A stretch of 64,000 nt of DNA from Eledone cirrhosa (taxonomy: Eukaryota): NCBI GenBank assembly GCA_964016885.1, contig OZ024750.1:186001-250000 (forward strand), written 5' to 3'. Below the pieces are notes generated by a model, which saw nothing but the letters and a program-made list of their open reading frames with translations, was not told the DNA's origin and did not search any database. Shown here one piece after another: positions 6,507 to 58,455 of this stretch; within the stretch, counting starts at the first letter, position 1, and the number at the start of each line of letters is the position of its first letter. The position numbers and the translations under genes were made by a program.

Positions 6507-7164
6507 CGAAATAAATGATGTACATGAAATTACATAATGGCTAAGTTCACATTTTCCCCAAACAAATCTGCCGGCAATAGAGATAGCTTGAAATATTGTT
6601 TAAAGATTGTGTTTTTATTTAATCAGACAATAAGTATTTAGAATAAAATTACATAAAAACATAAAGAATTTAATATTTAAATGAAGCATTAGGAATACGT
6701 ATTTATCTGCTATCAACATAAACTGCTTGATATTACATAAATATGGAAGAGAAGCAAGAATGAGTTACTCTATTCCTCCTGGTCTCTAATTGTGCCAGCA
6801 TGGAAATGATGATGACAGTGGTGATGAAGATAGTGGTGATGACGACAATGATGATGAATCTCTGATGTGGCATGTCATACTCGAGGTAGTTTGTCTGACG
6901 TCAATGCTGTAATGTTTAAGTTATCTGTGAGTTGAATAGTTTAATTAAACATGGCATTCCACCATGGAACAATAAAGATGCTGAAAGAATTTTTAATAAT
7001 TGGCTTTTCCTGTTTATTTATTTAACGTCCTTATAGAACTAGTACCCATGACAGATTAGGGGTGGTGTATCTAGTGCCGCTTACAGTTAAGAAACAAAAG
7101 CTATATATATTTATAGAGAGAGAGAGTTAAAGAATGAAGATTAACATGGTTGGCTGTACAATAA

Positions 7165-10270: not shown

Positions 10271-12970
10271 CATGATGGCTGCCTCCTCGTTATCGAGTAT
10301 GGCCATTCCACAAGAAACCCCCCCCCCCCCATTAATAATAACGACAACAACAACAATAATAATATACATATATATACACACACACGCACACACGATAGCA
10401 ATTAACAGCGCTGCGATCGAATGTGGCTTTTTAGTCCAGCCAATGATTTAAAATGTCTTGCACAGAGTTGGCAACCAAAACATTCACTGGGAATAGCCGG
10501 CTGTGGTTGGAGTTAATGTACTTTTGCATGTCACTTGAGCCCTCCTGCTGATTTACATTCTCTACCACATGCTTGGCAAGCATAATGAGTAGCATCTCCA
10601 ACAGCAGCCTGGTAGTCAACCACTGATCTCACTTTATGACTGCGAAGATGACTTTCGAGTCCAGCTTTGCTTAGGCAGAGTCTCGCACAGACACTGCATG
10701 TCAGCGCCATAGGAGGACCTTCGCCGTCTGCAAATGCAACAGTAATGTCCTTCCTCACATCCCGCTTTACTTTCTCGTATGCGATTCGAGATGCCTCAAA
10801 GACAACTTTCCCCTCATAATAAGTATTTCTCCATTTATTACGATCAGCAGCAACATTTTCCCATGTATCAGCAGAGATGTTAGCGTCTTTCAAGGAATCC
10901 TCATGCCTCTTTTTTGGTTTATGTGGAGGTCGTTTTCCTTTAACTAACTCTCCATAAAAGAGTTGTTTTGGTATTCTAGAATCCTTCATCCTGGCAAAGT
11001 GACCACTCCAATGGAGTCTTTGCTTAAGGACAAGAGCTTCTATACTGTCACACATAGAGCTTTCCAAAATCTCGACATCACTGATGTGGTCCCTCCAGTA
11101 AACGCCATGGATCCAGCTGAGACACATCTGATGAAAACGCTCCAATTGCTTAAGGTGGTGTCGATATGTGACCCAGGTCTCGCAGGCATAAAGAAGAGAA
11201 GAGAGCACACATGCCTTGTACACCTTTACCTTTGTCTTCTTGCATATGTCTCGCCGACCCCAGAGTCGCCTTTCTAGCTTTCCGAAAGCATCACTTGCTT
11301 TCCTAATCCTAAGTGGGATTTCATTATCAAGGTTGCTGTATCGATTGACAGTGCTTCCCAGGTAGACAAACTGATCAACCACTCCAAGTCGTTTACCATA
11401 CACATAGATATTTGGTTCACTGTACTGCCTACCAGGGGCAGGTTGGTACATGACAACAGTTTTCTTGAGACTGACAGTCAATCCTAGGGCAGTGCAAGCA
11501 TCAGAAAATGTATTCAAAATGTGCTGCATATCACTCTCTGTGTGCGCTACAAGATCGCAATCATTTGCATACAAGAGGTCTCTTATGATTGATGTAAATA
11601 CTTTTGTTTTTGTAGCAAAGCGCCTGATGTTAAATATGCTGCCTGAGGTTCAATATTGGATGTAAACACCATGCTCGCAGTTCCTGAATGCAATATAGAA
11701 AACCATTGCAAAGTATATGGCAAACAGGGCCGGTGCTGGAATATCCCCATGTTTCACTCCATTTTTTACTGAGATAGGCTCCAACATTAACGCAAGCCTT
11801 CATGTTGTCATGGAAAGACCTAACCAAAGCAAGGAACTTATCAGGGCAACCAAGTTTCTGGAGAACCTTCCATAATGCATTGCTGTTAACAGTATCGAAA
11901 GCTTTTGTCAGATCGATAAAAACCTGATACAGATCCAAACCTTGTTCCATGCATTTCTCCTGGAGCTGTCTAGCTGAGAAGATCATATCAGTAGTGCCAC
12001 GGCCAGCACGAAAACCAGATTGACTTTCAGGAAGAACACAATCTGCAATGTGTGTCAGCAGACGGTTCAGAAGCACCCTACATAAAACTTTCCCTACGAC
12101 AGAAAGCAATGATATACCTCTGTAGTTCCCACAATCATTCCTGTTACCCTTTCCCTTGTACAAGACCACCATTACTGCATCTCTCCAGTCCTCAGATACG
12201 GATTCATTAGCCCATATCCTGCCAAACAAAGAGTGAAGATGTTGCAGAAGTCTCTCACCACCATATTGCAGGAGCTCTGCATATATGCCATCCATACCTG
12301 GAGACCTTCCACTGTTCAGCTTCGAGATAGCTACCGCAACCTCCACAAGCGTCAGAGGTTCTGCGAGAGCTACTTTCACAGGATTTTCTGGAATGAGATT
12401 GAAGAAATCTTCATTGACGACAGACAGATGATTCAAAAGATCATCAAAGTGCTCTCGCCACCTTCGTAGAATTCCTTGTGAGTCACAAAGAAGTTCTTTG
12501 CCATCCTTGCTGCGAAGCGGTGTCACCAGAGAAGAAGACGGTTCATAAACTTCACGCAAGAGACTATACAACAGCTTTGTGTTATTGGAGTCTGACGCAG
12601 CTTGTATCTCATCAGCCTTCTCACTCCACCACTGATCCTTCATCTGAGAAAGACTCCGCCTTACACGTGATTTCACATCCTTGAGTTCCTTATGCAACAT
12701 ATTCTTCTCCTGTGGTTTTGCCGTCAAGTAGCGTGACAGAGCACGCCTCTTATCAGCCAACAAGTCTTCTATATATACATCATTCTCATTAAACCAGTCT
12801 TGATGTTTTCTCTGCACCAATCCCAGAACACGCCTGCCTACATCATAAACCAACTTTTTAAGGGTCGGCCAATCCTCACCAAGATCTGCAACCTGCATCT
12901 CTTCTCACAATGTCCTCTTCACATTTTTATCCCTAAGACGAGCAGTATTCAATCTTCTGGGCGGGGTAAC
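10271..12970 (-). mobile_element. RTE-clade LINE, 5'-truncated and frameshifted (RT plus two C-terminal C2H2 fingers)
   Basis: ORFs 11630-12898 (SPGMDGI, NYRGISLLS, QSGFR, FIDLTKAFD) and 10531-11574 (YAND~YADD, LLYACETW, CSVC..H..H, CQAC); (TATG)n tail. Confidence 0.93.
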
Positions 12971-15713: not shown

Positions 15714-18120
15714 CTAATGTAATGGTACGCGATAGAGAATGTAGAAGGCGTTTCCCCGGAGGACGGCAAGGGAGGCGCGCTGGAAAAGCCACTCCAACTC
15801 GCGGGGTTCACACCTACGGCTGGCCAGCTCAGCGCCTATGGTGGTGAGGAAGGAGGTAGCCCTGGGGCCGAGGACACCAGAAGTTTCCACTGCCAGGAGA
15901 ACGACCGCAAACCTGTCGGTGAGCGACCGGTATTTGAGGAGTTTGGCCCCCTCAGCCCGACGTGCAGCCGAACCGGGGTCAGTCGCAGACTGCACCAGGT
16001 TGCGGCTGCAGAAAGTGTCGGTGCAAGTGGCATCCTAGACGAGGGGTTTGCCACCGCGGAACGGGAAGATGGTCATGCCATCTGGCCTTTTGCCGTCCCC
16101 TCGATCCGCCCCCACCAGCTCGAGCTGGGTAGGGAAGCCTGCAGCGTCCAAGCCATGCTTAATGACCTCTTTGGCGTGGAATGCGGCCGGCACTATGGCG
16201 ACAGGAAAGCGGGTGGAGGCCGAAAGAGTCCACGGTGGAACCGCAGCGACATTGGTGTGGCTGGCAGATCCGGAGGCCGAGCCTCAGGGAAACGCCGATT
16301 CGCAGGCTATGGTTGTCTAGCTGCGTGTCAGTGGAGAAGGAAGGCAGAGCATAGAGCCAGGCACCACTGTGGGGTTTGGAGGCCGCATGAAAACAAGCAA
16401 GACGGTGCTGGTCGAGCTGGCGTGTTAGCCTGTCTGAGGCCAGGCTGCACTGGATAGCATCCCAAGTGCGTTGGGGGACTTGACGTCAACAGGGGGAGAA
16501 GAGGAGGGACGTCTACTGGGCTAAGTCCCAGCCGGTCCCACGTCTCACAGGCGGCCTCATGTTCTCTGAACACAGAGGGTTCTGTTGTGTTTTGAAGAAC
16601 CCTGCTGACGACGACGCGGCACGAGGTTACCGACGAAAGATACGCCAGCAAAGCTAGTGAGGTCGGGGACGGGAGGCCTAGGCCGCCATACCTGACCGGT
16701 AAAGTGGCCTGTTGCCACCCTATGTCGTCAAACTTGACGTTGCATATCCCCTCGGCTGTTGCTCGGATACAAGTATCGAGGTCAGCGAGGAGAGATGTCT
16801 GGGTGTAGCATGGAGCGCTGTGGAGTGTATAGAGGAGCTTCGGCATGGCGAAGCAGTTCCTCAGCAGAAAGAGAGCTGGGTGGCCGTCAATCAAACCCAG
16901 TCGGCTCGTGAGAGTCTGGAGCTGTTGAAGCCTGGACCTGATGGTGGAGCGGATGGCCGGCGGGTGGATCGGTGACCCGAGGATGAGAACATCCTCTTTG
17001 GGGGTCACCTGAACCTGGCGGAGAATGGACCGCACGTCCAAGACGGAGGCTGCAAAGCTCACAGCATCGAGGCTGACGTTCACCACCTCCGACTTGGCCG
17101 AGTTGACCTGGAGTCCGATTCCCGCTAGGGCAGGAATCACCGATTGAAGGTCTTGGCAGACCCTCTGCACGGGCCCGCCCAACGTAGCATCATCCAGATA
17201 CCAAACGTTGAGAGGGGCCGTGATACTCCGGGCGATGTGGTCAATACCAAGGGCGAACAGGAGGGGTCCCAAAGGGTCGCCCTGTTGGACCCCGACCCCA
17301 GTAGCCGAGGGTATGACCGTATCAGCAGCTAGGAGCATGCTCGGGGCTGTTGACCGGCCGCCCCGGTCTGCGCCAGTGCTGGGGAGGCCGAGGGCGAGTG
17401 GGGCGAAATAGAACAGACGCTCCCAGTCACTGGCTCGATTGGAGTCCAGGGCGCTCTCAATCGAGGAAGTGAGGGCATCGGCTACCGGCACCCGTGCCGC
17501 TCTCGGGATCCTGAGTGGGATCTTCCGGAGCCGCCTGATCCGAGCGATGTTGACCAGCGAGGCTCGGGCGTCAGGCAAGCTCGCTGTCCCATCTGGTGGT
17601 GTGCCAGACGGCCGTGGATGGGAAGACGTGGGGAAGAGGCAGCTCCTGCACCTCCACGCTGCGAGGGCATTGGAAGCTCGACGAGTCAAGCCAATGCAGG
17701 TGAGGTGGTGGAAGCAGCCGCACCCCAAACAGTTCCGGCCCCTCTTCCGTTTGTTAGTAGTGCCGCAAGTGCTGCAGGTGTCGATTTGGAGTGGTGGGGT
17801 GGGGCCGGGGACTGGGGCACTGAGCAGCATCAGGGGTGGGTGGCTGGTGTGTGTGGTTGGAAGGGAAAGTGCTGGTAAGAGAGCAGCATAGCTCACCTAT
17901 ATATATGGAGGTGCCAGAAAACGAGAGCGAAAAGGGGCTGCATGGAAGGGGAGACACAGGCAGGTAGAATGGCAGTAAATGAATGAGTGAATGGATGGAT
18001 GTACACAAAAAAGGGGTGGGAGTGGGGGAACAAGGGGTTGTTCCCAGCGGAAAGACCCAGAATTCAGCACGCCACGCACACATGCGAGCAACTGAGCAGT
18101 TTGTCAAAGACGATATTCTC
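15714..18120 (-). mobile_element. GC-rich CRE-clade-like non-LTR retrotransposon (PHD-RT-zinc-RLE), internally deleted and frameshifted
   Basis: N-terminal PHD (CSTC..CLGCGCFHHLTC..WRCRSC); GVQQGDPLGP and WYLDD; CRCG..GLHPLSC; RLE motif DGKRPDGMTIFPF..DATC..KLLKY..AVETSG. Confidence 0.88.
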
Positions 18121-21702: not shown

Positions 21703-21900
21703 GATTTCTGATTTAGGCTCAAGGCCAGCAGTTTGAAGGGAGGGGGAAAGTCAATTAAATCGACCCCAGTGCGTGACTGGTATTTTATTTTATCTGCACC
21801 CTAAGGATGAAAGGAAAGCTAACATCGGCGGCATTTGAATTCAGAACGTAAAGAACCGTAACTATATACTGCAAAACATGTTGTCAGACGCTCTACCGAT
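21703..21900 (-). mobile_element. tRNA-derived SINE (same family)
   Basis: Reverse complement of the SINE core and B-box. Confidence 0.8.
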
Positions 21901-29002: not shown

Positions 29003-30521
29003 TATCATCATCATTTTACGTCCACTTTTCCCTGCTTGCAAGGGTGGGACGGCTCTTATTCAGCACAGCATTTCTCCACTTGTCACGGTCCTTCGTCATC
29101 TCCACCGTGAGCTTCAGCGATCTGAGGTCTGCTCTCACCATCTCCGCCCATGTTTTTCGTGATCTACATCTACCACGTCTTCCTTCAACTGGCATTTCCT
29201 GGCACTTCTTCACCCATCGGTCATCCTCCATTCGCATCACATGTCCATACCACCTCAGTCTCCTCTCTCGCAGACTACATTCTATCCCTCTCAGACACAG
29301 TTTCTCTCTCAACACATTCATGCTGGGTCGTTCACGCACATTGACATTGCACATCCAACGGAGCATGCTTACCTCATTTCTCTCTAGCCGTCGCGTACCC
29401 TCTGTAGTTGCTGCCCATGTCTCACTACCATGCAGCATCGCGCTCCTCACACAGGCATCATATAACAGGCCTTTCGTACGCAGGGAGAAACCCTTCTTCG
29501 TCAGCAGAGAAAGCAGCTCCCCAAACTTCTTCCAACCCGTCCTTATTCTAGATACTATGGCCTCAGAATACCCCCCCCCCCCCATCCCATGCTAATCTGA
29601 TCTCCTAGGTACCACCACTTCTATATCACCCACCTGCATTTGAAAAATGTGTCTATCAATGCGACTTCTACTGTTTAATTTCCCTGTACATCTACTGCAT
29701 ACGTATTTCTCCCTACCTGTTAGTTTGCCTGCTATCCCACTACATCTCTTGTGTACCCAGGATCTGCATTGTGTGCATTTTATAGAATTTATGCCAGTTC
29801 CTTTTCTGCATATCGAACATGGCCATTTCCCTGGCAGAATCAGAGTTTTGTCCTCTTTTCTACTCATCAACACTTTTGTCTTAGCTAGGTTCACTCTCAG
29901 TCCTCTTGCTTCCAACTGCTGTTTCCATAGCCAGAATTTATTCTCTAGCTCCACTACTGATTCTGCTATAAGAACCAGATCGTCAGCATAGAGAAGTTCC
30001 CATGGACAGCCAGTCTTAAACTCCTCTGTTATGGCTTGGAGGACTATAATGAACAAGAGCGGGCTGAGGACCGAACCTTGATGTACTCCTACTTGTATCT
30101 GGAATTCCTCACTAAACTCCATTCCTACCCTGACTTTACTGACAGCACCTCTGTACAAAGTTTGCACTGTCTTCACAAGCCATTCCTCAACACCTAGTTT
30201 CCTTAGGGCCCACCAGATGACAGATCGGGGTACCCTATCAAAGGCCTTCTCTAGGTCAACAAAGGCTAAGTATAGTGGCTTATTCTTCTCTAAGAACCTC
30301 TCTTGTAATTGTCTCACCAAGAAGGGCGCATCTATTGTACTTTTCCCAGGCACAAAACCAAACTGCATCTCATCTAATTTGACCCTTTCTCTAATTAGTT
30401 GTGCTAATATCCTTTCTGCCACTTTCATAACCTGATCCATCAGTTTTATACCCCTATAATTGCTCCTCTCCAGAGCATCCCCTTTACCTTTGTAGCAATT
30501 TATGAGAATACTGCTGCACCA

Positions 30522-30522
<1 letters not shown>
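29003..30522 (-). mobile_element. 5'-truncated RTE-type LINE with RT plus an internal PHD finger
   Basis: NYRGIKL, FVDLEKAFD, GVHQGSVLSP, YADD, then CSIC..CTQC..WVHKRC..CSRC; C-terminal ORF 29016-29585 is homologous to 5466-6068; (GAT)n tail. Confidence 0.92.
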
Positions 30523-30594
<72 letters not shown>

Positions 30595-30753
30595 GTTATC
30601 CACAGTAAGTTGTGGGATCTATTCTGTATGAAGAACTCGGTGTAATCCATATGTTGAAAATGTTGTAGGTTAAGATAAATCTCGGAAAACAATAAAACAT
30701 TATCTATGAAGTATATCTCTAATGACTTGATTTTTTATTTCATTGTTTTAACT

Positions 30754-34793: not shown

Positions 34794-35670
34794 TGGTGGC
34801 TGCCAACTCGTTTTCGAGTACGGCCACTACTTTATATCCATGTAGGAGAACCCCTACCGATGTGCTGAACAAGTGTGACTTTTTAGTCCAGCCAGCGACT
34901 TGAAGACTCTGGTACAAACACTACACTTGTGACAATTATTGACACATAGTGCTGGGCCCATGGTACCATGTGAGGACAAGTGCAGAGAGATCTCCAGATA
35001 TAAAGCAATGCCTGTGCCGTGAAGCTTTTATAGTGAGCAAAGGCACTGCACAAAGCCAGTCCCACTCTCTTAACCAAGATGATATTTACCAAAAAGAAGA
35101 ACAAGTCAACATCATTGGATACCATCAGGGTTGCAGGTGTTATATCAGAGTTTTCCTTCTCCTAGAATTCTGCCTTGACAAAGGCTAAGGGGTCATCTCT
35201 CCCGGTGATTTTGGATGGCCATTGACTCTTAAGAGCTCCTTTGCCCATACATACATACATACATACATACATACATACATACATACATACATACATACAT
35301 GGTGGCTGCCAACTCGTTTTCGAGTACGGCAACTACTTTATATCCATGTAGGAGAACCCCTACCGATGCGCTGAACGAATGGGACTTTTTAGTCCAGCCA
35401 GTGACTTGAAAACTCTGGTACAAACACTACACTTGTGACAATTATTGACACATAGTGCTGGGCCCATGGTACCATGTGATGACAAGTGCAGAGAGATCTC
35501 CAGATATAAAGCAATGCCTGTGCCGTGAAGCTTTTATAGTGAGAAAAGGCACTGCACAAAGCCAGTCCCACTCTCTTAACCAAGATGATATTTACCAAAA
35601 AGAAGAACAAGTCAACATCATTGGATACCATCAGGGTTGCAGGTGTTATATCAGAGGTTTCCTTCTCCTA
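34794..35670 (-). mobile_element. Two tandem 5'-truncated copies of the non-autonomous RTE-related element
   Basis: 34794-35246 and 35300-35670 are nearly identical to 47818-48270; separated by (CATA)n. Confidence 0.85.
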
Positions 35671-37107: not shown

Positions 37108-38174
37108 TGCGAGCCTCGCGGGATGGAGTGGTTGTTCCAGTGCTTCTACCTCGCCATTTTCCTGAGGCAATGTCTTCTCCATTCTGCTACGAGGCAGACA
37201 AACCCTTAAACAGTGGGGTAATAAATACAGATCTCTCTCTCTCTCTCACACACACACAGTTTCTCAATTGTCAGTTATTTAAATTGAGTTACAAGCAAGT
37301 TTTCTGAGGATTATATCATTTAATGCGTCCTTCCTTTTTTAAGAAGGTAGATTATGATTTAAGGGAGATTTAGCTGTTATTTCTAGTAAATCGAACGACC
37401 ACTTAGAGGTTCTTTCATTGGTCTGACTTTGTATGGATTTTATTGAGAGGTTGGAACCTATTAAGAAGTAATTTGTTAAATAACAATCAATTTCGTCATA
37501 GCTGCACGATCTTATCCATTTTAATGCAGGTTTAATAATGGGACATGCAGGTTTAATTATTCTTTTAAAAATTAACAAGTACATACATATAATCAATTAA
37601 TTATTGTTAGAAACCTTATAAATGTTATTTACAAAAAGGTTAAATTTCTTTATTCACAGTTGTATAAATAATTGTTTCTACTATAGACACAAGGCCAGCA
37701 ATTAATCAGTACATTACTGGTACTTTATTTTATCGACCCCGTATCGATGAAAGGCAAAGTTAACCTCAGCGGGATTTATACTCAGAACGTAAAGGGCCAT
37801 GACTCTGTGCTGCAAAGCATGGTGTCTGACGCTCTACCGATACTGCCAATCCACCACACAAAAATATATAATCAAAGCAAAAGAAAGAAAAAAAACACGC
37901 CAAAAAACCATCAATTCACCTAAAATGTGTCACATCGGAATAAAATATAATCAGAGCGAGAAAAACAATGGGAAAAAAATAACCATCAATATTTTCTCTA
38001 TTTTTTATGTTAATATAACTTCTAGTGTCTCTTTTTCCAGTGAAATACGTAAAATACGCGTGTAAGGAAACTTAAAAAGGAATTTTCCATTTCATTTGAT
38101 ATATACATTTGTTTTTATAAGTTATAAATTGATGTGTGACTGTAGTGAGGATTACTGTTACACATCGAAATTGT

Positions 38175-38335
38175 TGACGTCATAAGTTGTCAGTTTGTGT
38201 TGGAGGTGTGGCTTCTTAACAAGACAGACAGGGTGGGCGGGACTTAACCATTTATGGTTAATGTGGGAACTTATATTGAAATACTATCTTGTTATTACTA
38301 TATAAACAAGCAGGTAGTTAGGAGAACTTATTCTG
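38175..38335 (+). promoter_or_regulatory. Pol II promoter: CRE, GC box, CArG, TATA
   Basis: TGACGTCA at 38175-38182; TGGGCGGGAC at 38234-38243; CCATTTATGG at 38248-38257; TATATAAA at 38299-38306; Inr-like TTATTC about 30 bp downstream. Confidence 0.7.
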
Positions 38336-38607
38336 AAACTTTGATACTCGATCACAGTACATGCAAAATTTAACAGCTAACTTGTGATTCATTTAAAGCG
38401 AGGAAAACATTATATACAGATACATTGTTGACTGCTACTATCGCTACCAGTTCTCATTCGACTCAGGAAATCGTAAAAGAATATTTACTTTGAAATTTTG
38501 TAAAAAAGACTTTACTGTAAAAAAAAAACTTCACTAATATTATTAGATTCCGCTGCCCTTTCAGTTTTTTCATCGAAGTAATTGTACCTCCCTCACACCA
38601 AGTCAAC

Positions 38608-39174
38608 ATGCTTGATAACGAAGTATATTTAAATTACGGGCCCTACCGCCGCATTCGTAGGAATGCTTTGGCCAATATACTTGAGGGATTAAAACCAGAG
38701 GCCCTTCACTGGCTTTCGACGGTTGACCAACGATGTGCGAAATATATTGATGAAGAAAATATCATTAATGGAGATGAAGGCGACGATGAGAACGACAATG
38801 ATGATGACGATGAGGATGGCGGGAAATATTCGGGAACAGATGAAAAGGACATCGTATTAAACCAAGATAAAAGAAATGAAGACGATTCTTGTCAGATCGA
38901 TTCCGAATCAGTCAAAGTGGATTGTCTGAGACGGTTAAGTTCAGTTCTGGAATATCAGTTCAAATCATCGTATGCGGCAATCCGAAGGAATGCTTTACAT
39001 GATTTACTGGAAACTTTAACTCCAGCTGAAATCACAACACTTAAACAGTTGTGTCAGTTGGAACATTGTGTGAAAGACTTGTCTTTAGAACACGATCGAT
39101 TCGATCAACTTCTTTTACCTACAAACTACCCGTACATAGAGACATATTTCGACAAATATTTAACACAGGTATGA
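38608..39174 (+). CDS. 188-aa protein with two RRNAL PKA-pseudosubstrate repeats (PKI-like)
   Basis: CAACATG start context; non-repetitive ORF in unique sequence; internal repeat YRRIRRNALANILEGLKPEAL / YAAIRRNALHDLLETLTPAEI; acidic linker; promoter upstream. Confidence 0.8.
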   Translation: MLDNEVYLNYGPYRRIRRNALANILEGLKPEALHWLSTVDQRCAKYIDEENIINGDEGDDENDNDDDDEDGGKYSGTDEKDIVLNQDKRNEDDSCQIDSESVKVDCLRRLSSVLEYQFKSSYAAIRRNALHDLLETLTPAEITTLKQLCQLEHCVKDLSLEHDRFDQLLLPTNYPYIETYFDKYLTQV

Positions 39175-39570
39175 TGAACGATATTTTACTAAGATGGAGA
39201 AAAAAAAAAAGGAATTTTATTTTAAATGTGTTAAAAAATGACGAGGAGGGGAAATATTCTACCCTGCGATAATCCGGTCAAGACACAGCTAAAAGCAAGA
39301 ATGGAAAAGAGTGTGAAGTAAGAAAGAAATTATATGAAGTGAGGGGACCAAAAATAAGGAAAAAATATTGAGAAAAAAATGAGGAAAAAAAGTTATCTGT
39401 AATAGCGAAACAATGAACAAAACCGTGACATTATCAAGGTCTCCTTAAAGGAACAAAATTTTAGTTACTTCATGACTTGAACAATTGGAAGAAACTCCGT
39501 ATCCGTGAGCAACGACTGTATACAATATTTTGAATATATTATGAATTTTATACATAATTAAGCAGCTTTT

Positions 39571-39688
39571 TTTAATTTATTTATTTATTTTCTGTATGTG
39601 AAATATTTGAAAATAAATAATAATTTGTTAAAAGAAAGAGAAAGAGAAAAGAAATGAATGATTAAAAAAATATTGTGATAGAAATAAA
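39571..39688 (+). promoter_or_regulatory. AU-rich element and poly(A) signals of the putative 3'UTR
   Basis: ATTTATTTATTTA at 39575-39587; AATAAA at 39612-39617 and 39683-39688. Confidence 0.45.
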
Positions 39689-39773
39689 AGAGATTGAACA
39701 AAATATGGAAATGAAATCTGAACGAAGAAAACAAGAAAAAAAAAGACAAGACTGTACTATATATATATATGTG

Positions 39774-45642: not shown

Positions 45643-45937
45643 CCAATGGTTACAATAGAATATTTAACAGAACTTTGAAATTTCACATATGGGAGAAAAA
45701 TATTTACCCACATACACACAAATATTCACACCCACGTACACACACACACATAAACATACACGTACACACACATTCAGATACACACAAATATACACATCTA
45801 CGTACACACATACCTTTATGGTTATTCCAAATTATTCTTTGGATGCGGTTAACTTTGCTAATTAATTACGGTGACGTTGGTATCCATGGGAACTGGAATT
45901 GTGACGTCAATCTAAACCTAAATTAATCATTAAAGAG

Positions 45938-46547
45938 AATAATTTTTTCTACTTTTGACACAAGGCCAGCAATTACTCAGTGTATTACTGGTACTTTATA
46001 TTATCGACTCCGTAAGGATGAAAGACAAAGTTAACCTCGGCGGGATTTGAACTCAGATTGGAAAGGGCCGTAACTCTATGCGTCAAAGCATGGCGTCCGA
46101 CCCTCTACTGATATTGCCAATAATAATTGTTTCTACGTTAGGCACAAGGCCAGCAATTACCCAGTGCATTACTGGTACTTTATTTTATCGACCCCGTAAG
46201 GATGAAAGACAAAGTCAACCTCGGCATAAATAAATATTATAATAATTGTTTCTACTTTTGGCACAAGGCCAGCAATTAACCAGTGTATTACTGGTACTTT
46301 ATTTTATCGACCCCATAAGGACGAAAGGCAAAGTTAACCTCGGCGGGATTTGAACTCAGAATGACAAGGGCCGTAACTCTATGCGTCAAAGCATGACGTC
46401 CGACCCTCTACCGATACTGCCAATCCACCGCCCTATAAATATAATAATTGTTTCTACTTTTGGCACAAGGCCAGCAATAACTCAGTGTATTACTGGTACT
46501 TTATTTTATCGACCCTGTAAGGATGAAAGGCAAAGTTAACCTCAGCA
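45938..46547 (-). mobile_element. Tandem cluster of four SINE copies (long-short-long-short)
   Basis: Units start at about 45938, 46121, 46240 and 46441, each with ttctact..cacaaggccagcaa. Confidence 0.85.
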
Positions 46548-47817: not shown

Positions 47818-48427
47818 ATGGTGGCTGCCAACTCGTTTTCGAGTACGGCCACTACTTTATATCCATGTAGGAGAACCCCTACCGATGCGCTGAACGAGTG
47901 TGACTTTTTAGTCCAGCCAGCGACTTGAAAACTCTGGTACAAACACTACACTTGTGACAATTATTGACACATAGTGCTGGGCCCATGGTACCATGTGACG
48001 ACAAGGGCAAAGAGATCTCCAGATATAAAGCAATGCCTGTGCCGTGAAGCTTTTATAGTGAGCAAAGACACTGCACAAAGCCAGTCCCACTCTCTTAACC
48101 AAGATGATATTTACCAAAAAGAAGAACAAGTCAACATCATTGGATACCATCAGGGTTGCAGGTGTTATATCAGAGTTTTCCTTCTCCTAGAATTCTGCCT
48201 TGACAAAGGCTAAGGGGTCATCTCTCCCGGTGATTTTGGATGGCCATTGACTCTTAAGAGCTCCTTTGCCCTTTGACAGGTTTTGTTTTTAGTCCTGCAG
48301 GATGTCCAAAGTCACCCTCCTCACCAAGAAACCTTGGTGGGGTTGCCAGTTTAGCCGCCAACAACCCGACCATGAGACAGGTTGTACTGGGATACATGTT
48401 ACCAGTAGCACCAACTGGTGACCTGAC
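47818..48427 (-). mobile_element. Full-length (~610 bp) non-autonomous RTE-related retroelement
   Basis: 3' end resembles the RTE LINE tail plus (TATG)n; four other near-identical partial copies, including 58045-58455 (+). Confidence 0.75.
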
Positions 48428-50269: not shown

Positions 50270-53200
50270 GATTATACTTGTAATTTCCTAACTAGTTGTG
50301 TTCTTTCTGTTCCTGTGAAGCCTAGTTTCTTAAGATTTGTATTGAGGCAGTTACTAACATATCTCAGTGCCCCAATAATCACAGGCATAAATCTGAAGGT
50401 GTAATCAGGGTGGAGTATCTGCAGATTTCTCATCAGTTTTGCATAAATATTCTTCTTTGATATTATATTGGCATCTGCTGGGCAGCTAATTTCCACTACT
50501 GTGCATGTTTTCTTCTCCCTGTCCCATATCATAATATCTGGTCTGTTATGCCTGCATTTTATTGGGGTTTTTACTGGAACATTCTACCAGTACTCTTTCA
50601 TATTATGTACATGGATGTCTTCCACATTGCTGCAACTTTTAATGTGTTTATTATCGGAGCTTTCTTTTTTTACGAACTGCATTGTACAGTGTTTGGGCCA
50701 CTACATCATGCCTCATAGGTAGATAGTACCGCGAGGACATCTTTGGACAGCTGCTGATGACATGGGTGATATCCTCGATGTTAGTTCTGCAGAGTCTGCA
50801 CTTGTTATCACATCTAGGTGTTTTGCCTGCATCCCTATCTCTTTTGTGAATCAGGTATTTCGTGCTAATCTCCTGTTCTTGGATTGCAAAAGCGTATCCT
50901 TCAAAGTAGGAGCCAATATAGCGGTTGTTGGTCCAAGATAGACTACTTTCCTTATCTATATTACTCTCACTCTGGAGCTTCCTGGCAACATATCCATGCA
51001 TGATTTTTTGCTGATAAGCATGCAGTTTTTCATCCATGGATTCACTGCGATACTGCTGAGCGACTTCCCTGGGTGTAAGTTTTTGATTACCACACAGGGA
51101 ATATCTCTCGAGGAGTTCCTTCACAACTCTCATGATCTTATCTGTTTCATGCAGATAGACTTGCTCGAGAGACGGGCTCCTACGCTTCGAGGTTCGTAGA
51201 TGTTGTCGGGGAGATATGATGCGACATTCAAATGCTGTCTGGACTGATGTTAGGCCTCTGCCTCTCTGCTTACGTTTCAAGTAAAGGCGGTCTATGTTAC
51301 TGTTGATGTGGAAGTTTCCGGTGTTATTTAGTAGTTTTCGAGTTCCAACATCAACTGCTCGGATTTCGTTTATCATGCAATAGAGTATTCCAAACGTTGG
51401 TGTTAGGACAGACACAGCAAACACATTGTGAGCCATTGTTTTGTTTTGCGCAGAGAGTTCCGATGACCAGATCTTTCTTAATCGGGTATAGTATTCCCTG
51501 GTTACGCGTTCCTTATTACAGATACCATTATAGGATATGTTCTCATCTTTCCCCAGGTATCTGTAGCAGTCCTCATCAGATATCGGTGAAACAGTTAGGC
51601 CATTGATGACAATGTTGCTAGATTGGGTTGTTGTTTTACCGCGCTTTACAGTCATGAATGAGCATTTATCTTGGCCAAACTCCATTCCTGTATCCTTTGA
51701 GAACGTTGTAACTAGGTCAAGATTTTTCTTCATCCCATCCATGTTCTTGGCATAGAGTTTCAGATCGTCCACAAAGAAATTATGGGTTAGGTTCGTATTT
51801 CTGTCCTCCTGTGAGCCAATGATGTATCCCTCACATTTCTTGAGCAGAAAGGACAAGGGGTTTAATGACAAGATGAATAATATCACAGAGAGACTGTCCC
51901 GCTGAAATATACCCTTGCGATATTTTATTTTATCAGTGAAAATAGAGTCCTCCCTCTCTGTCTTTAACCTTAGGATAGTAGCCCAAGAAGAAGACAACCT
52001 CTCTATGGCTCTGACAATAATGTCTGGGACTTTAGCAAGTTGGAGGGCCTATATCATCCAAGAGTGGGGAACAGAATCGAAAGCTTTCCTGTAGTCCAGC
52101 CAGACTGTAGCCATATTCCTCCTAAGTTGTCGCACCTCCGACATCGCAGTTTTGTTGATTAGGAGTTGTTCAGCACATCCCCAAACCCCTTTCTTTCCAG
52201 CTGCTTGTTCATATGTGATGATGTTATTATTTTCATAGTGATCTTGGGGGAATAGGTTCAGGCAGGGTGTATACATCTTATACATCAGGTTCTGGCATGC
52301 AATGGGTCGGTATTTTTTTTGCCAAGTGGGTGTCTTTGTTCTTGGGGACCAGTAATGTTTGTGTTAATGTCAACCATTCTGGTATAAGTGTATCTCCCTT
52401 AAGAACTTATTGGTCGAGGTCAGTAAGATGTCTCCGATAGAATATCATTTTTTTGTACCAGTAGCCAACAATCATCTCTCTTCCTGGTGTTTTCTTATCT
52501 TGGAGTTTTCCTATCACAGTCTCAAGGGTACCCTCACTTATTTCGTATGTTTTTGTTGTAGTGTAGGAGCGCGGATTTCTCTTAGCCACACTGCATCTTG
52601 GTTGAAATTCTTCTTTTCACCCCATATTTTGCTCCAAAAGGAATCCATGTCTTTCTGGGATGGGGCTTCAGTGACACTTATTATTTTGCCCTTCATATCT
52701 CTATAGACTGATGTTTGGTTTCGTCTGAATCTTTTATTAAGCACTTTTCTCTCATCTACCTTCTTCAGGTATCGGCGTTTTTCGCTAACAGCTCTCAATT
52801 CTTGTGATCAGCTTATATTGAAGAGTTCTGGTTCTACTGTTACCAAACATCGTCTCTATTTTATTGTTCACTCTTTGTTGGTGAGGAGTGAGGTTTTTTT
52901 GTGTTTGTTTGCATGTAAGGAGCATTGTCACATATCCTATGGTTTTTCGTAGGTCAGCAATCTTTTTTTCTATTTTAGTTATATATGATGGTATTTTTGG
53001 TGGTGTTCTGTTCTTGTTAATATCTTTGCTATCACCAAGATAATGCTTCACTGTCGTTGCTAAGGCATATAAACAGGCGTTGATTTGCCAAAATGTTGGG
53101 GTTTTTATCCGTCGTAAATATTCATCCCCTATTTCATCAATAACACGTAATATTTCATTATTTGGTTTTTTATTAAACATTGTCGTTTTAATACGTTCAA

Positions 53201-53950
53201 CAAGAGAGATATTTATACATGAATTAATTTCTCTCTGGAAGATTTCGTTGAGGGAAATTTTCAATTGTTTATACTTTTGATTATTATCATTATCGATAGT
53301 ATTTTCCACAACAGTCGAGGTAGACTCGGATGGTACACGTGGTGTCAAATTTCTTCGATTATTATTATTATCGATCGTATTTTCCCCAGCATTCGAGGTA
53401 GACTTAGATGGTACAGGTGGTGTCAAGTTTCTTACAGGCATAGTTGTTTCAAGGCACTGTTCGACCTGGCTGCTAGGAAGTCTAGTAGCATGGCGACTTG
53501 TAGCACGTGTTGTTGATCCCATGTTTGTTGTGGGGGACTTACAATTAATACTATTTATCCTATTTTTACGTTCAACAAACGTCGCTTGTTGGCGTAATTG
53601 TTTCGCTGTGAAAGAATTTAGCTCTGGATGCATTTCGTCCCAGTGTACCTTCATTCTGTTCATATAGCCAATGGAGGGATTGGTTTTTTGCCATTTTATA
53701 ACAATTAAATAAATCATTATTAAGTTCGCAACTCCAAGAGAAATGCGATTTATAATTTCGCATTCTTCTGTAGCTACAACTGAATAAAGTTTGTTTACCT
53801 TTCTTGTTGTTTGTCTTCGATACTTCCTTAATTTTGTTGTTGATGTTGTGTTCAGCCATGCTGTTTGTAACAAAACCTTGTAAAATGAATTATGTATTTA
53901 GTCGGATATCCCTACGAATTCGAATAAAAGGTGTCTTCAGAAGATATAGT
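50270..53950 (-). mobile_element. R4/Dong-like RLE non-LTR retrotransposon, near full length, decayed
   Basis: YRPIAC, WLDYRKAFDSVPHSW, GIFQRDSLS, FFVDD, CRLC..EDITHVISSC..RHD, NRPDIMIWD..VVEISCP; several frameshifts. Confidence 0.9.
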
Positions 53951-55799: not shown

Positions 55800-57700
55800 G
55801 CCAGACCTTCCCACCAACCACACGACCAATGTTCTACGTTCAAGCGTAACAGTCGACGGCGAGAAGCTGCACGCGGTGTGACGAGCCCCAACAGCCCTTA
55901 CTGGCACCTACGGGCTTTCAAGTATGAACAAAACGTTAATTACTCGATGCGCTCTGACATAAATATAGGCGAGATGCGCTTCAATTGCCAATTCTGCAAT
56001 GCTACAAAGTGGGCTGGGGAGCCACCTGCAATGTGCTGCTTAAACGGTAAGGTCACCTTGCCCCCTCTTACGGAACCGCCAGAGCCTTTGAAGGAACTAC
56101 TGACTGGTTATACCTCAAGGTCAAAAAAAAAAAACCTGAACCCCCACCCCCAATAAAAAACGCTCCTGGGGTACCGGAAAAACTTTTGTAACGAATTTGA
56201 TTCTCGCTAAGATTCGTCAGGAGAAAAAAGTTGCGTTGTCCGTTGCATCGCTGCTACTTTGCTGCTGGGAGGCAGGACAGCACATTCAACCTTTAAACTC
56301 CCTTTGGATTTAATAAAAACTGAGACACCAACATGCAATATCAGCAAGAGTTCACACAAAGCTCTGGTTCTCAAAAGATGTTGCCTCAATGTTTGGGATG
56401 AGTGCACAATGGCACACAAGGGTGCCCTTGAGGCATTGGACAAGGCCTGGAAAGACATTAGGGATTCTACGGCTCCTATGGGTGGCGTAACCCTTCTGCT
56501 ATCAGGGGATTTTCGGAAAACGCTGCCTGTCATCCCCAAATGGACAAGAGCTGATGAAGTGCGTGCCTGTCTTAAGTCGTCCATGTTGTGGCTCCAGGTG
56601 AATAGTTTGTACCTGAGCACAAATATGCGTGCTCATTTGCATGGTGACAACATGTCTGCAGCACAGAACATTTTAACACTTGGTGAGGGCAAGATCCCTG
56701 CGGATGACAAGGGCGGCATAGCAATCGACACCCTGTGCAACATTGTGAGCAGCCCTTCTGACCTTTGGGAAGCAGTTTTTCCTAATGACTCATCGAACTT
56801 TAAAAACCTCGATTGGCTCAGCGAAAGAGCCATCCTTGCTCCGAAAAATACTATGGTTAATTTTATTAACGAGCAGCTGAATGAGAAGATTCCCGGTAAA
56901 GAGCACATCTTCAAATCAGACCCCGACGATATCGTTAATTATCCGGTTGAGTTATTAAATCTCCTTGAGCCCCCAGGGCTCCCACCTCACATTATTAAGT
57001 TTAGGGTTGGCTGTCCCATTATGCTAATAAGGAACTTGCGTCCACCAAAGCTGTGCAACGGTACTCGCATGGTCGTCAAGTCACTGACACCCACTTGATT
57101 GAGGCCACCATTGTAACGGGGTGCGGAAGAGGGGAGAATGTTTTCATTCCAAGGATGAACCTTTTCCCCTCGGCGTCAGATATCCCGTTTGATCCCATGT
57201 TTTGCCATGTCCATTAACAAGTCACAAGGGCAAACATTGTCGGTGGCGGGCATCCATTTGGGGGAGCCATGCTTCTCCCATGGCCAACTTTATGTTGCCT
57301 GTTCCCGCGCAGGGAGCAGGAATGGACTTTTTGCTTACTCTCCTCAAGGGATGACACGCAATATCGTCTACAAAGAGGTGCTATAGATGTTGGTGCAGGT
57401 GTTGGAGCTATGCCGTCTGGAACACTATTTCCTGGTAGGGTCTCCCATGGCGGACAGATCTGACACCCAGCGGCATCAGGGCCACCATCTTGCAACTTTG
57501 GTCTACTAAATTCGCTATTGGAAGATTATTAACCTATCATTGATTGACCAAAATGCTAATTAGTTCGTAACTTTTAATAACCGGTTCAACTGCTTTATGC
57601 ACTTAATTGATAAGCTTATTCGCTTTCAAACCACGTTTACCTGTATGTAACTTTTCATAGCAAATGAACAAACCCGAGCAACGCCGGGCTAAACTGCTAG
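55800..57700 (+). mobile_element. Decayed Helitron (N-terminal Zn motif plus PIF1-type helicase; Rep domain deleted)
   Basis: CQFC..CCLNGKV; APG-TGKT, GGRTAHSTFKLP, WDEC, GDFR, LCNGTR, FAMSINKSQGQT, FSHGQLYVA; 3' hairpin cccgagcaacgccggg plus CTAG|T at 57697-57701. Confidence 0.92.
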
Positions 57701-58044: not shown

Positions 58045-58455
58045 GGGAGAGATGACCCCTTAGCCTTTGTCAAGGCAGAATTCTAGGAGAAGGAAAACTC
58101 TGATATAACACCTACAACCCTGATGGTATCCAATGATGTTGACTTGTTCTTCTTTTTGGTAAATATCACCTTGGTTAAGAGAGTGGGACTGGCTTTGTGC
58201 AGTGCCTTTGCTCACTATAAAAGCTTCACGGCACAGGCATTGCTTTATATCTGGAGATCTCTTTGCCCTTGTTGTCACATGGTAACATGGGCCCAGCACT
58301 ATGTGTCAATAATTGTCACAAGTGTAGTGTTTGTACCAGAGTTTTCAAGTCGCTGGCTGGACAAAAAAGTCACACTCGTTCAGCGCATCGGTGGGGGTTC
58401 TCCTACATGGATATAAAGTAGTGGCCGTACTCGAAAACGAGTTGGCAGCCACCAT
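58045..58455 (+). mobile_element. Non-autonomous RTE-related element, 5'-truncated
   Basis: Reverse complement of 47818-48230, followed by (TATG)n. Confidence 0.85.

Follow-up and report, generated by a model that had tools for sequence, protein, structure and literature searches.

A CRE–CArG–TATA Cluster Upstream of a Coleoid-Conserved Gene for a Putative Two-Site PKA Pseudosubstrate Protein in Eledone cirrhosa

The Locus and Its Surroundings

The stretch of DNA analysed here, referred to as the window, comprises 64,000 nucleotides (64 kb) of contig OZ024750.1 from Eledone cirrhosa (assembly GCA_964016885.1, positions 186,001 to 250,000 of the forward strand). Inspection by eye of its open reading frames (ORFs) recognised one conserved host gene, a 188-codon ORF whose product is called P0001; no other host gene was seen in that list. 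A cluster of promoter-type motifs lies 280–430 bp upstream of this ORF (Table 1).

On its upstream side, the unique promoter sequence is bounded by a SINE-like repeat. The promoter region itself is single-copy: its depth is 8–18 in three large runs, as compared to millions on the repeat. Similar copies of it were not found elsewhere in the window, where similarity is limited to the acidic-codon patch of the ORF. These depths come from four runs of one study (X1–X4), of unrecorded kind, that were mapped to 37270–39750 and whose contigs show neither transcription start nor expression level.

Mobile-element remnants are scattered through the window. The SINE-like repeat has matches at 21767, 32533, 45938, and 46241, among others, with tandem partial copies at 45938–46546. 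Another dispersed repeat is present in four near-identical copies carrying the same short ORF (34883–35125, 35389–35631, 47908–48150, and 58123–58416), and fragments resembling LINE-type retroelements and a Helitron-like helicase were recognised by eye at 10531–12898, 16328–17830, 29016–30650, 50651–53717, and 55947–57098.

Table 1. Features of the promoter region, the predicted transcript, and the encoded protein (window coordinates; positions relative to the predicted start at A38330).
Feature	Position	Strand	Remarks
SINE-like high-copy interspersed repeat	37667-37857	.	depth very high in each of the four runs; 13 further BLAST matches in window
kappaB/NFAT-like element GGAATTTTCC, weak	38079-38088	.	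pattern picked post hoc; one other in window
Full palindromic CRE TGACGTCA	38175-38182	.	-155
GC box GGGTGGGCGGGAC	38231-38243	+	-99
7-4-7 extended palindrome enclosing CArG	38244-38261	.	
CArG box CCATTTATGG	38248-38257	.	-82
CSL/Su(H)-type site TGTGGGAA	38262-38269	+	4 bp downstream of CArG
TATA box TATATAAA	38299-38306	+	first T at -31
Initiator TTATTCT (YYANWYY match)	38328-38334	+	predicted transcription start A38330
Upstream ORF, 8 codons	38361-38387	+	in predicted leader
188-codon ORF (P0001)	38608-39174	+	coleoid-conserved; probably complete, single-exon
Repeat 1, RRNAL	38656-38670	+	P0 = Ala20; Arg P-6, P-5; Tyr P-13, P-10; no Phe P-11
RRLS, possible PKA phosphorylation site	38929-38940	+	Ser111; RRxS in 5/6 octopod sequences
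Repeat 2, RRNAL then HDLL	38983-38997	+	P0 = Ala129; Phe P-11; no Arg P-6; PKI-like
NES-like hydrophobic pattern, weak	39058-39087	+	residues 151-160
C-terminal T-x-V + stop, possible class I PDZ-binding end	39163-39174	+	T186, V188 invariant
AU-rich element, three overlapping AUUUA	39575-39587	+	sole plus-strand copy of 13-mer in window
First AATAAA downstream of ORF	39612-39617	+	further ones at 39661, 39683

Promoter Motifs and Their Clustering

A sequence-only reading of this DNA had described four motifs, namely a CRE, a GC box, a CArG box within a palindrome, and a TATA box. All four are found where that reading had placed them, and the cluster that it put at ‘about 130 bp’ spans 132 bp from CRE to TATA. 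The GC box combines a perfect Sp-type decamer (38234–38243) with an overlapping EGR-like 9-mer (38231–38239) that has one mismatch, the number originally claimed; of the proposed GC/EGR-like identity, the Sp-type half is thus perfect, while the EGR half exists only in mismatched form. We take the decamer, one of two perfect copies in the 64-kb window, to be an Sp/KLF site from its consensus. A sequence scan for Ets cores (MGGAW) found none beside the CArG box, the nearest being at 38148, 100 bp upstream. The site adjoining the CArG box, one of eight YGTGRGAA matches in the window, presumably belongs to the CSL/Su(H) type. The region also contains a 15-nt direct repeat (87% identity, copies 57 bp apart), with one copy after the CArG box (38267–38281) and the other over the initiator (38324–38338).

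Taken singly, some of these motifs are common. Full CREs number four (6896, 16481, 38175, and 45902), as compared to 0.4–1.3 expected in a window simulated with Markov models, and a lone CRE therefore says little. The sequence-only reading had listed isolated copies at 6896 and 45902, both of which are present, but had overlooked the one at 16481. The latter sits in a GC-rich, retroelement-like ORF region, and the CRE at 45902 directly precedes the tandem SINE-like cluster at 45938–46546. The window also holds four CArG boxes, 15 GGGCGG cores, and as many as 580 plus-strand TATAWAW strings. The sequence-only reading had regarded only the clustering as informative; partner motifs lie within 300 bp of just one of the four CREs and one of the four CArG boxes, and none within that distance of the other three of either kind.

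The rarity of the cluster was assessed by simulating 150 windows of 64 kb under each of three Markov orders (1, 2, and 3). A CRE and a CArG box no more than 200 bp apart occurred in 2, 2, and 4 of 150 windows, respectively, and all four motifs together in 0, 0, and 1 (1/450 overall). These figures somewhat overstate the significance because the choice of motifs followed inspection of the sequence.

Predicted Start and Transcript Features

Downstream of the four motifs, an initiator, which the sequence-only reading had not used, places the predicted start at A38330, with the TATA box beginning 31 bp upstream (first T at -31), an arrangement shared by 6 of the window's 112 TATAWAWR sites that lie outside microsatellites. 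This matches the start near 38330 that had been predicted for a promoter serving the ORF, a claim with which the TATA–initiator spacing agrees. From A38330, the ATG would fall at +279, behind a predicted leader of 278 nt; the short upstream ORF in this leader could dampen or stress-gate translation. The AU-rich element beyond the ORF is marginally enriched (its nonamer count was equalled in 44 of 1000 shuffles), the transcript ends being predicted only. Because of the TATA–initiator spacing and of the triple AUUUA and AATAAA located 3′ of the ORF, the motif cluster is very likely the proximal promoter of the 188-codon ORF.

Run X4 yielded one 1412-nt contig covering 38376–39563 and 39659–39750, with no joint at 39169, and has no cover at 38017–38348, where X1–X3 are continuous. 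An unspliced transcript beginning slightly after 38330 would be expected to leave such a pattern; with the kind of run unrecorded, it is not counted here as evidence.

The Encoded Protein and Its Homologues

A homology search with P0001 returned five homologues among 227 candidates, the named ones all uncharacterised: a protein of Octopus bimaculoides (64% identity, in a cluster shared with O. vulgaris), one of Argonauta hians, two further records, and a cluster with Sepia pharaonis at 39%. Fifteen aligned sequences share, without variation, the two RRNAL repeats, a helical stretch after each, Thr186, and Val188, while the acidic linker diverges. Conservation extends about 15 residues beyond P+1, further than the PKI(6–22) inhibitor peptide.

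The C-terminal T-x-V, which from its consensus may be a class I PDZ-binding end, is followed by a stop codon. A possible splice donor overlaps the end of the ORF in the sequence (CAG/GTATGA, GT at 39169–39170). Nevertheless, the same T-x-V end is present in four named proteins (O. bimaculoides, A0A0L8HRC2; O. vulgaris, CAI9717243.1; A. hians, GAB1602774.1; and S. pharaonis, CAE1234015.1), which favours a complete single-exon ORF despite the possible donor. The NES-like pattern at residues 151–160 is kept in the orthologues checked and absent from two paralogues, though patterns of this type are common.

Other approaches were less productive. An AlphaFold2 model built from a six-sequence alignment had a mean pLDDT of 40.5 and was left unused. 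The ESM Atlas search gave nothing usable for P0001 or for P0025, a relative described below; a PDB search with the full-length profile matched acidic low-complexity sequence only; and a metagenome scan with the protein alignment produced 135 pattern matches and no confirmed relative. A literature search that used no accessions and covered mostly non-subscription papers turned up no study of this gene, its family, molluscan PKIs, or PKI induction through a CRE.

Between the PKI and TC1 Families

In Smoothened, the PKI motif is recognised by four hallmarks: alanine at P0, arginine at both P-2 and P-3, a hydrophobic residue at P+1, and an aromatic residue upstream (10.1101/2021.07.05.451193). Both repeats of P0001 show the first three, their RRNAL core being invariant in the 15 sequences, and each has an aromatic residue upstream (Tyr in repeat 1, Phe in repeat 2). 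In the PKI(6–22) peptide, P-11 is Phe and P-6 is Arg (PMC7723848). In P0001, neither repeat combines these two residues, which are split between repeat 2 and repeat 1, respectively.

Profile comparisons place the protein near PKI, below the usual thresholds. P0001 scored 16.8 bits against Pfam PKI (PF02827; E 0.0084), under the gathering score of 25, and 10 of 11 family members matched this profile weakly, always under that score (14.4–20.7 bits), the remaining one having no PKI match. When the repeat profile was searched against the PDB, PKI-alpha came first (E 0.021), with unrelated pyrin domains barely behind (E 0.025). P0001 had no match to TC1 (PF15063; gathering score 27) at E up to 10. 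Scanned singly, 11 repeats divided into four of the second type matching PKI, four of the first type matching TC1, and three matching neither. Repeat 1 of the window belongs to the last group, whereas the second repeat of P0001 matches PKI, under the cut-off. A complex prediction paired repeat 1 (residues 1–45) with ATP, Mg, and a PKA catalytic subunit taken, as a stand-in, from metagenome contig L018; run without controls, it gave a score of 0.02, which weighs neither for nor against binding.

Further relatives emerged from profile searches. A paralogue, absent from the window, has the same two repeats and a different, conserved C-terminus (P0017–P0022; O. bimaculoides A0A0L8HSK0); in P0017, P0018, and P0020, repeat 1 unites Phe P-11 with Arg P-6, the full PKI signature. 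Profile and repeat-only searches added short two-repeat proteins (P0026, P0042, and P0043) and proteins of 240–329 aa with about four repeats (P0025 and P0038–P0041). P0027 is also among the proteins with about four RR-x-A/G-L repeats. Three of six scanned relatives passed the TC1 cut-off of 27 (P0039, 29.3 bits; P0040, 27.6 bits; P0041, 27.9 bits), and P0025 fell just under it (25.8 bits). These matches cover about positions 9–48 of the 75-position TC1 profile, not the full domain. With P+3 to P+7 as the sole anchor, 20 proteins yielded 43 repeats, every one of them RR-x-A/G-hydrophobic and none with Ser or Thr at P0, and the TC1-scoring repeats are no exception; the 43 are not independent because the proteins are related and were retrieved using the motif. 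A match to a moth protein, P0024, which lacks the RR-x-A motif, was judged spurious and discarded. Five records (P0006, P0010, P0018, P0019, and P0023) are longer than their sister records and read Trp at the position where those terminate; stop-codon editing was set aside for them, as gene calling with TGA read as Trp probably explains these forms.

The label ‘PKI-like’, originally given to the ORF, therefore holds for its PKA-pseudosubstrate motifs, but not for membership of the PKI family, to which, on sequence grounds, P0001 does not belong: it has 188 residues and two repeats, scores under the Pfam cut-off, and has links to TC1. With PKI alpha, beta, and gamma (PF02827), P0001 shares an RRNA-hydrophobic pseudosubstrate; in repeat 2 the likeness extends to Phe P-11 and to the His-Asp after the core. 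P0001 likewise appears largely unfolded, with a possible leucine-rich export signal downstream. In contrast to PKIs, which are 70–75 aa long with one inhibitory domain (PMC7723848), P0001 has 188 aa and two repeats, and adds an acidic linker, the RRLS site, and the T-x-V end, with the Phe P-11/Arg P-6 pair split as noted above. Pseudosubstrate motifs inside non-PKI proteins have precedents in Smoothened, where the hallmarks are the same (10.1101/2021.07.05.451193), and in ARHGAP36, which embeds a PKI-like motif (PMC5059767). However, these are large proteins with other domains, whereas conservation in P0001 is nearly confined to the repeats.

With the TC1 family (TCIM/C8orf4 and, presumably, AVPI1; PF15063), the resemblance lies in first-type repeats and multi-repeat relatives, which match the N-terminal half of its profile; the differences are that P0001 itself has no TC1 match and that the relatives repeat the partial profile two to four times. 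Judged by its motifs and profile matches, the gene encodes a tandem pseudosubstrate protein between the PKI and TC1 families, and this protein family is more interesting than the promoter.

Comparison with Immediate-Early Promoters

An Ets/TCF site beside the CArG box is part of the vertebrate SRE. The architecture of fos and egr1, to which the cluster had been likened, is thus reproduced in its CRE, CArG, and TATA elements, but not in its SRE, as the CArG box here has no adjacent Ets core. Like fos/egr1-type promoters and insect and crustacean egr-B (PMC6140108), the cluster has a CRE and an SRE/CArG element no more than about 160 bp from the predicted start, an initiator, and a GC-rich element, ahead of a short predicted transcription unit with AU-rich sequence toward its 3′ end. 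Unlike the fos/egr1 type, it has one CRE, one CArG box, no adjacent Ets/TCF site, and a CSL-type site adjoining the CArG box. Moreover, fos/egr1-type promoters drive a transcription factor, whereas the octopus promoter would drive a putative kinase decoy.

The promoter type is already known. An invertebrate example is cricket egr-B, a proven immediate-early gene, in whose core promoter two CREs and one SRE accompany an initiator (PMC6140108). Training reportedly raises the expression of creb and egr1 in octopus (10.1101/2025.10.16.682951), and the same preprint states that no octopus immediate-early genes had been reported before its creb and egr1 data.

A Proposed Inducible PKA Decoy and Its Rivals

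The motifs, their spacing, the ORF, and the conservation of the protein motifs are observed; where transcription starts, which factors bind, and whether the gene is induced, its mRNA unstable, and PKA bound are matters of inference. In the reading we prefer, to which we assign a probability of roughly 0.45 as a whole, the locus would be a CREB/SRF-inducible gene for a two-site decoy of the PKA catalytic subunit (PKA-C). The TATA box and initiator would fix the start at about 38330; CREB-family factors would occupy the CRE, SRF the CArG box, and an Sp/KLF or EGR factor the site between them, allowing the promoter to answer cAMP/Ca2+ and SRF-linked signals. The AU-rich element would make the mRNA short-lived. 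The largely unfolded 188-aa product would bind and block free PKA-C through its two RRNAL sites, possibly tethered via its PDZ-type end, and the net outcome would be delayed negative feedback on PKA. Since the promoter is of the stimulus type and the protein has two putative PKA decoy sites, the gene may act as a fast brake on cAMP signalling. Taken separately, the gene is probably signal-inducible, and it seems similarly probable that its protein acts as a PKA-C decoy; a role in neuronal plasticity in particular, which had been suggested for this feedback, is doubtful.

Since the Ets site is missing and a CSL site is present, there is room for steady expression linked to SRF/MRTF or Notch. 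The cluster would then be a real promoter for steady or tissue-restricted expression, with SRF and an MRTF/myocardin-type cofactor (as in muscle or cytoskeletal genes) and basal Sp/KLF and CREB/ATF input; Notch input might come through the CSL site, and the PKA decoy may be constitutive, as vertebrate PKIs are. The perfect Sp-type decamer in the GC box also suits this alternative, and the accessible part of PMC7723848 treats vertebrate PKIs by tissue pattern, with the word ‘feedback’ absent from it. However, a full CRE, a TATA box, a short uninterrupted ORF, and a clustered AU-rich element are well known to suit a rapidly induced, short-lived transcript, and we consider steady expression rather unlikely, though deserving serious weight.

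Somewhat less probable still is an inducible promoter ahead of a protein with a TC1-like function (as TCIM and AVPI1), where the repeat would form a short helix on which something other than PKA-C docks, and its resemblance to PKI would be incidental. Tables of genes induced when treatments raise cAMP include Tcim and Avpi1 (PMC9346484 and PMC12073449), which fits the promoter equally well; the TC1 matches of four of the 11 single repeats, the three relatives above the TC1 cut-off, and the conservation past the reach of PKI(6–22) all point the same way. Against it stand the missing TC1 match of P0001, the PKI match of its second repeat, and the RR-x-A/G-hydrophobic core kept in every anchored repeat, TC1-scoring ones included.

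A chance cluster in AT-rich DNA, with the gene served by another start or the ORF forming one exon of a longer gene whose splice donor is the GT at 39169, could draw on the post hoc choice of motifs, the abundance of TATAWAW strings, the donor-like end of the ORF, and the upstream ATG in the predicted leader, but is very improbable given the simulation statistics, the initiator spacing, and the T-x-V end shared by four named database proteins.

The cAMP–PKA–CREB pathway is central to molluscan memory. A stimulus-induced two-site PKA-C inhibitor, if the decoy reading is true, would constitute a transcription-dependent brake on it. Few cephalopod immediate-early genes are known, and a short gene with such a promoter, if inducible, would provide both an activity marker and a small reporter promoter. 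If merely constitutive, it would represent an ordinary TATA promoter ahead of an uncharacterised gene.

A much wider proposal, which we regard as speculative and unlikely, is that PKI and the TC1 family derive from one RR-x-A/G-hydrophobic pseudosubstrate repeat and are linked by an invertebrate family with two to four repeats, the octopus gene being an immediate-early multivalent PKA inhibitor and the cAMP-induced vertebrate genes TCIM and AVPI1 perhaps encoding unrecognised kinase decoys that serve a similar feedback. Connecting PKI-like with TC1-like repeats yields a specific hypothesis about the biochemistry of TCIM and AVPI1. TC-1 has been described as limited to jawed vertebrates (PMC5349172), although P0039, P0040, and P0041 pass the TC1 cut-off.
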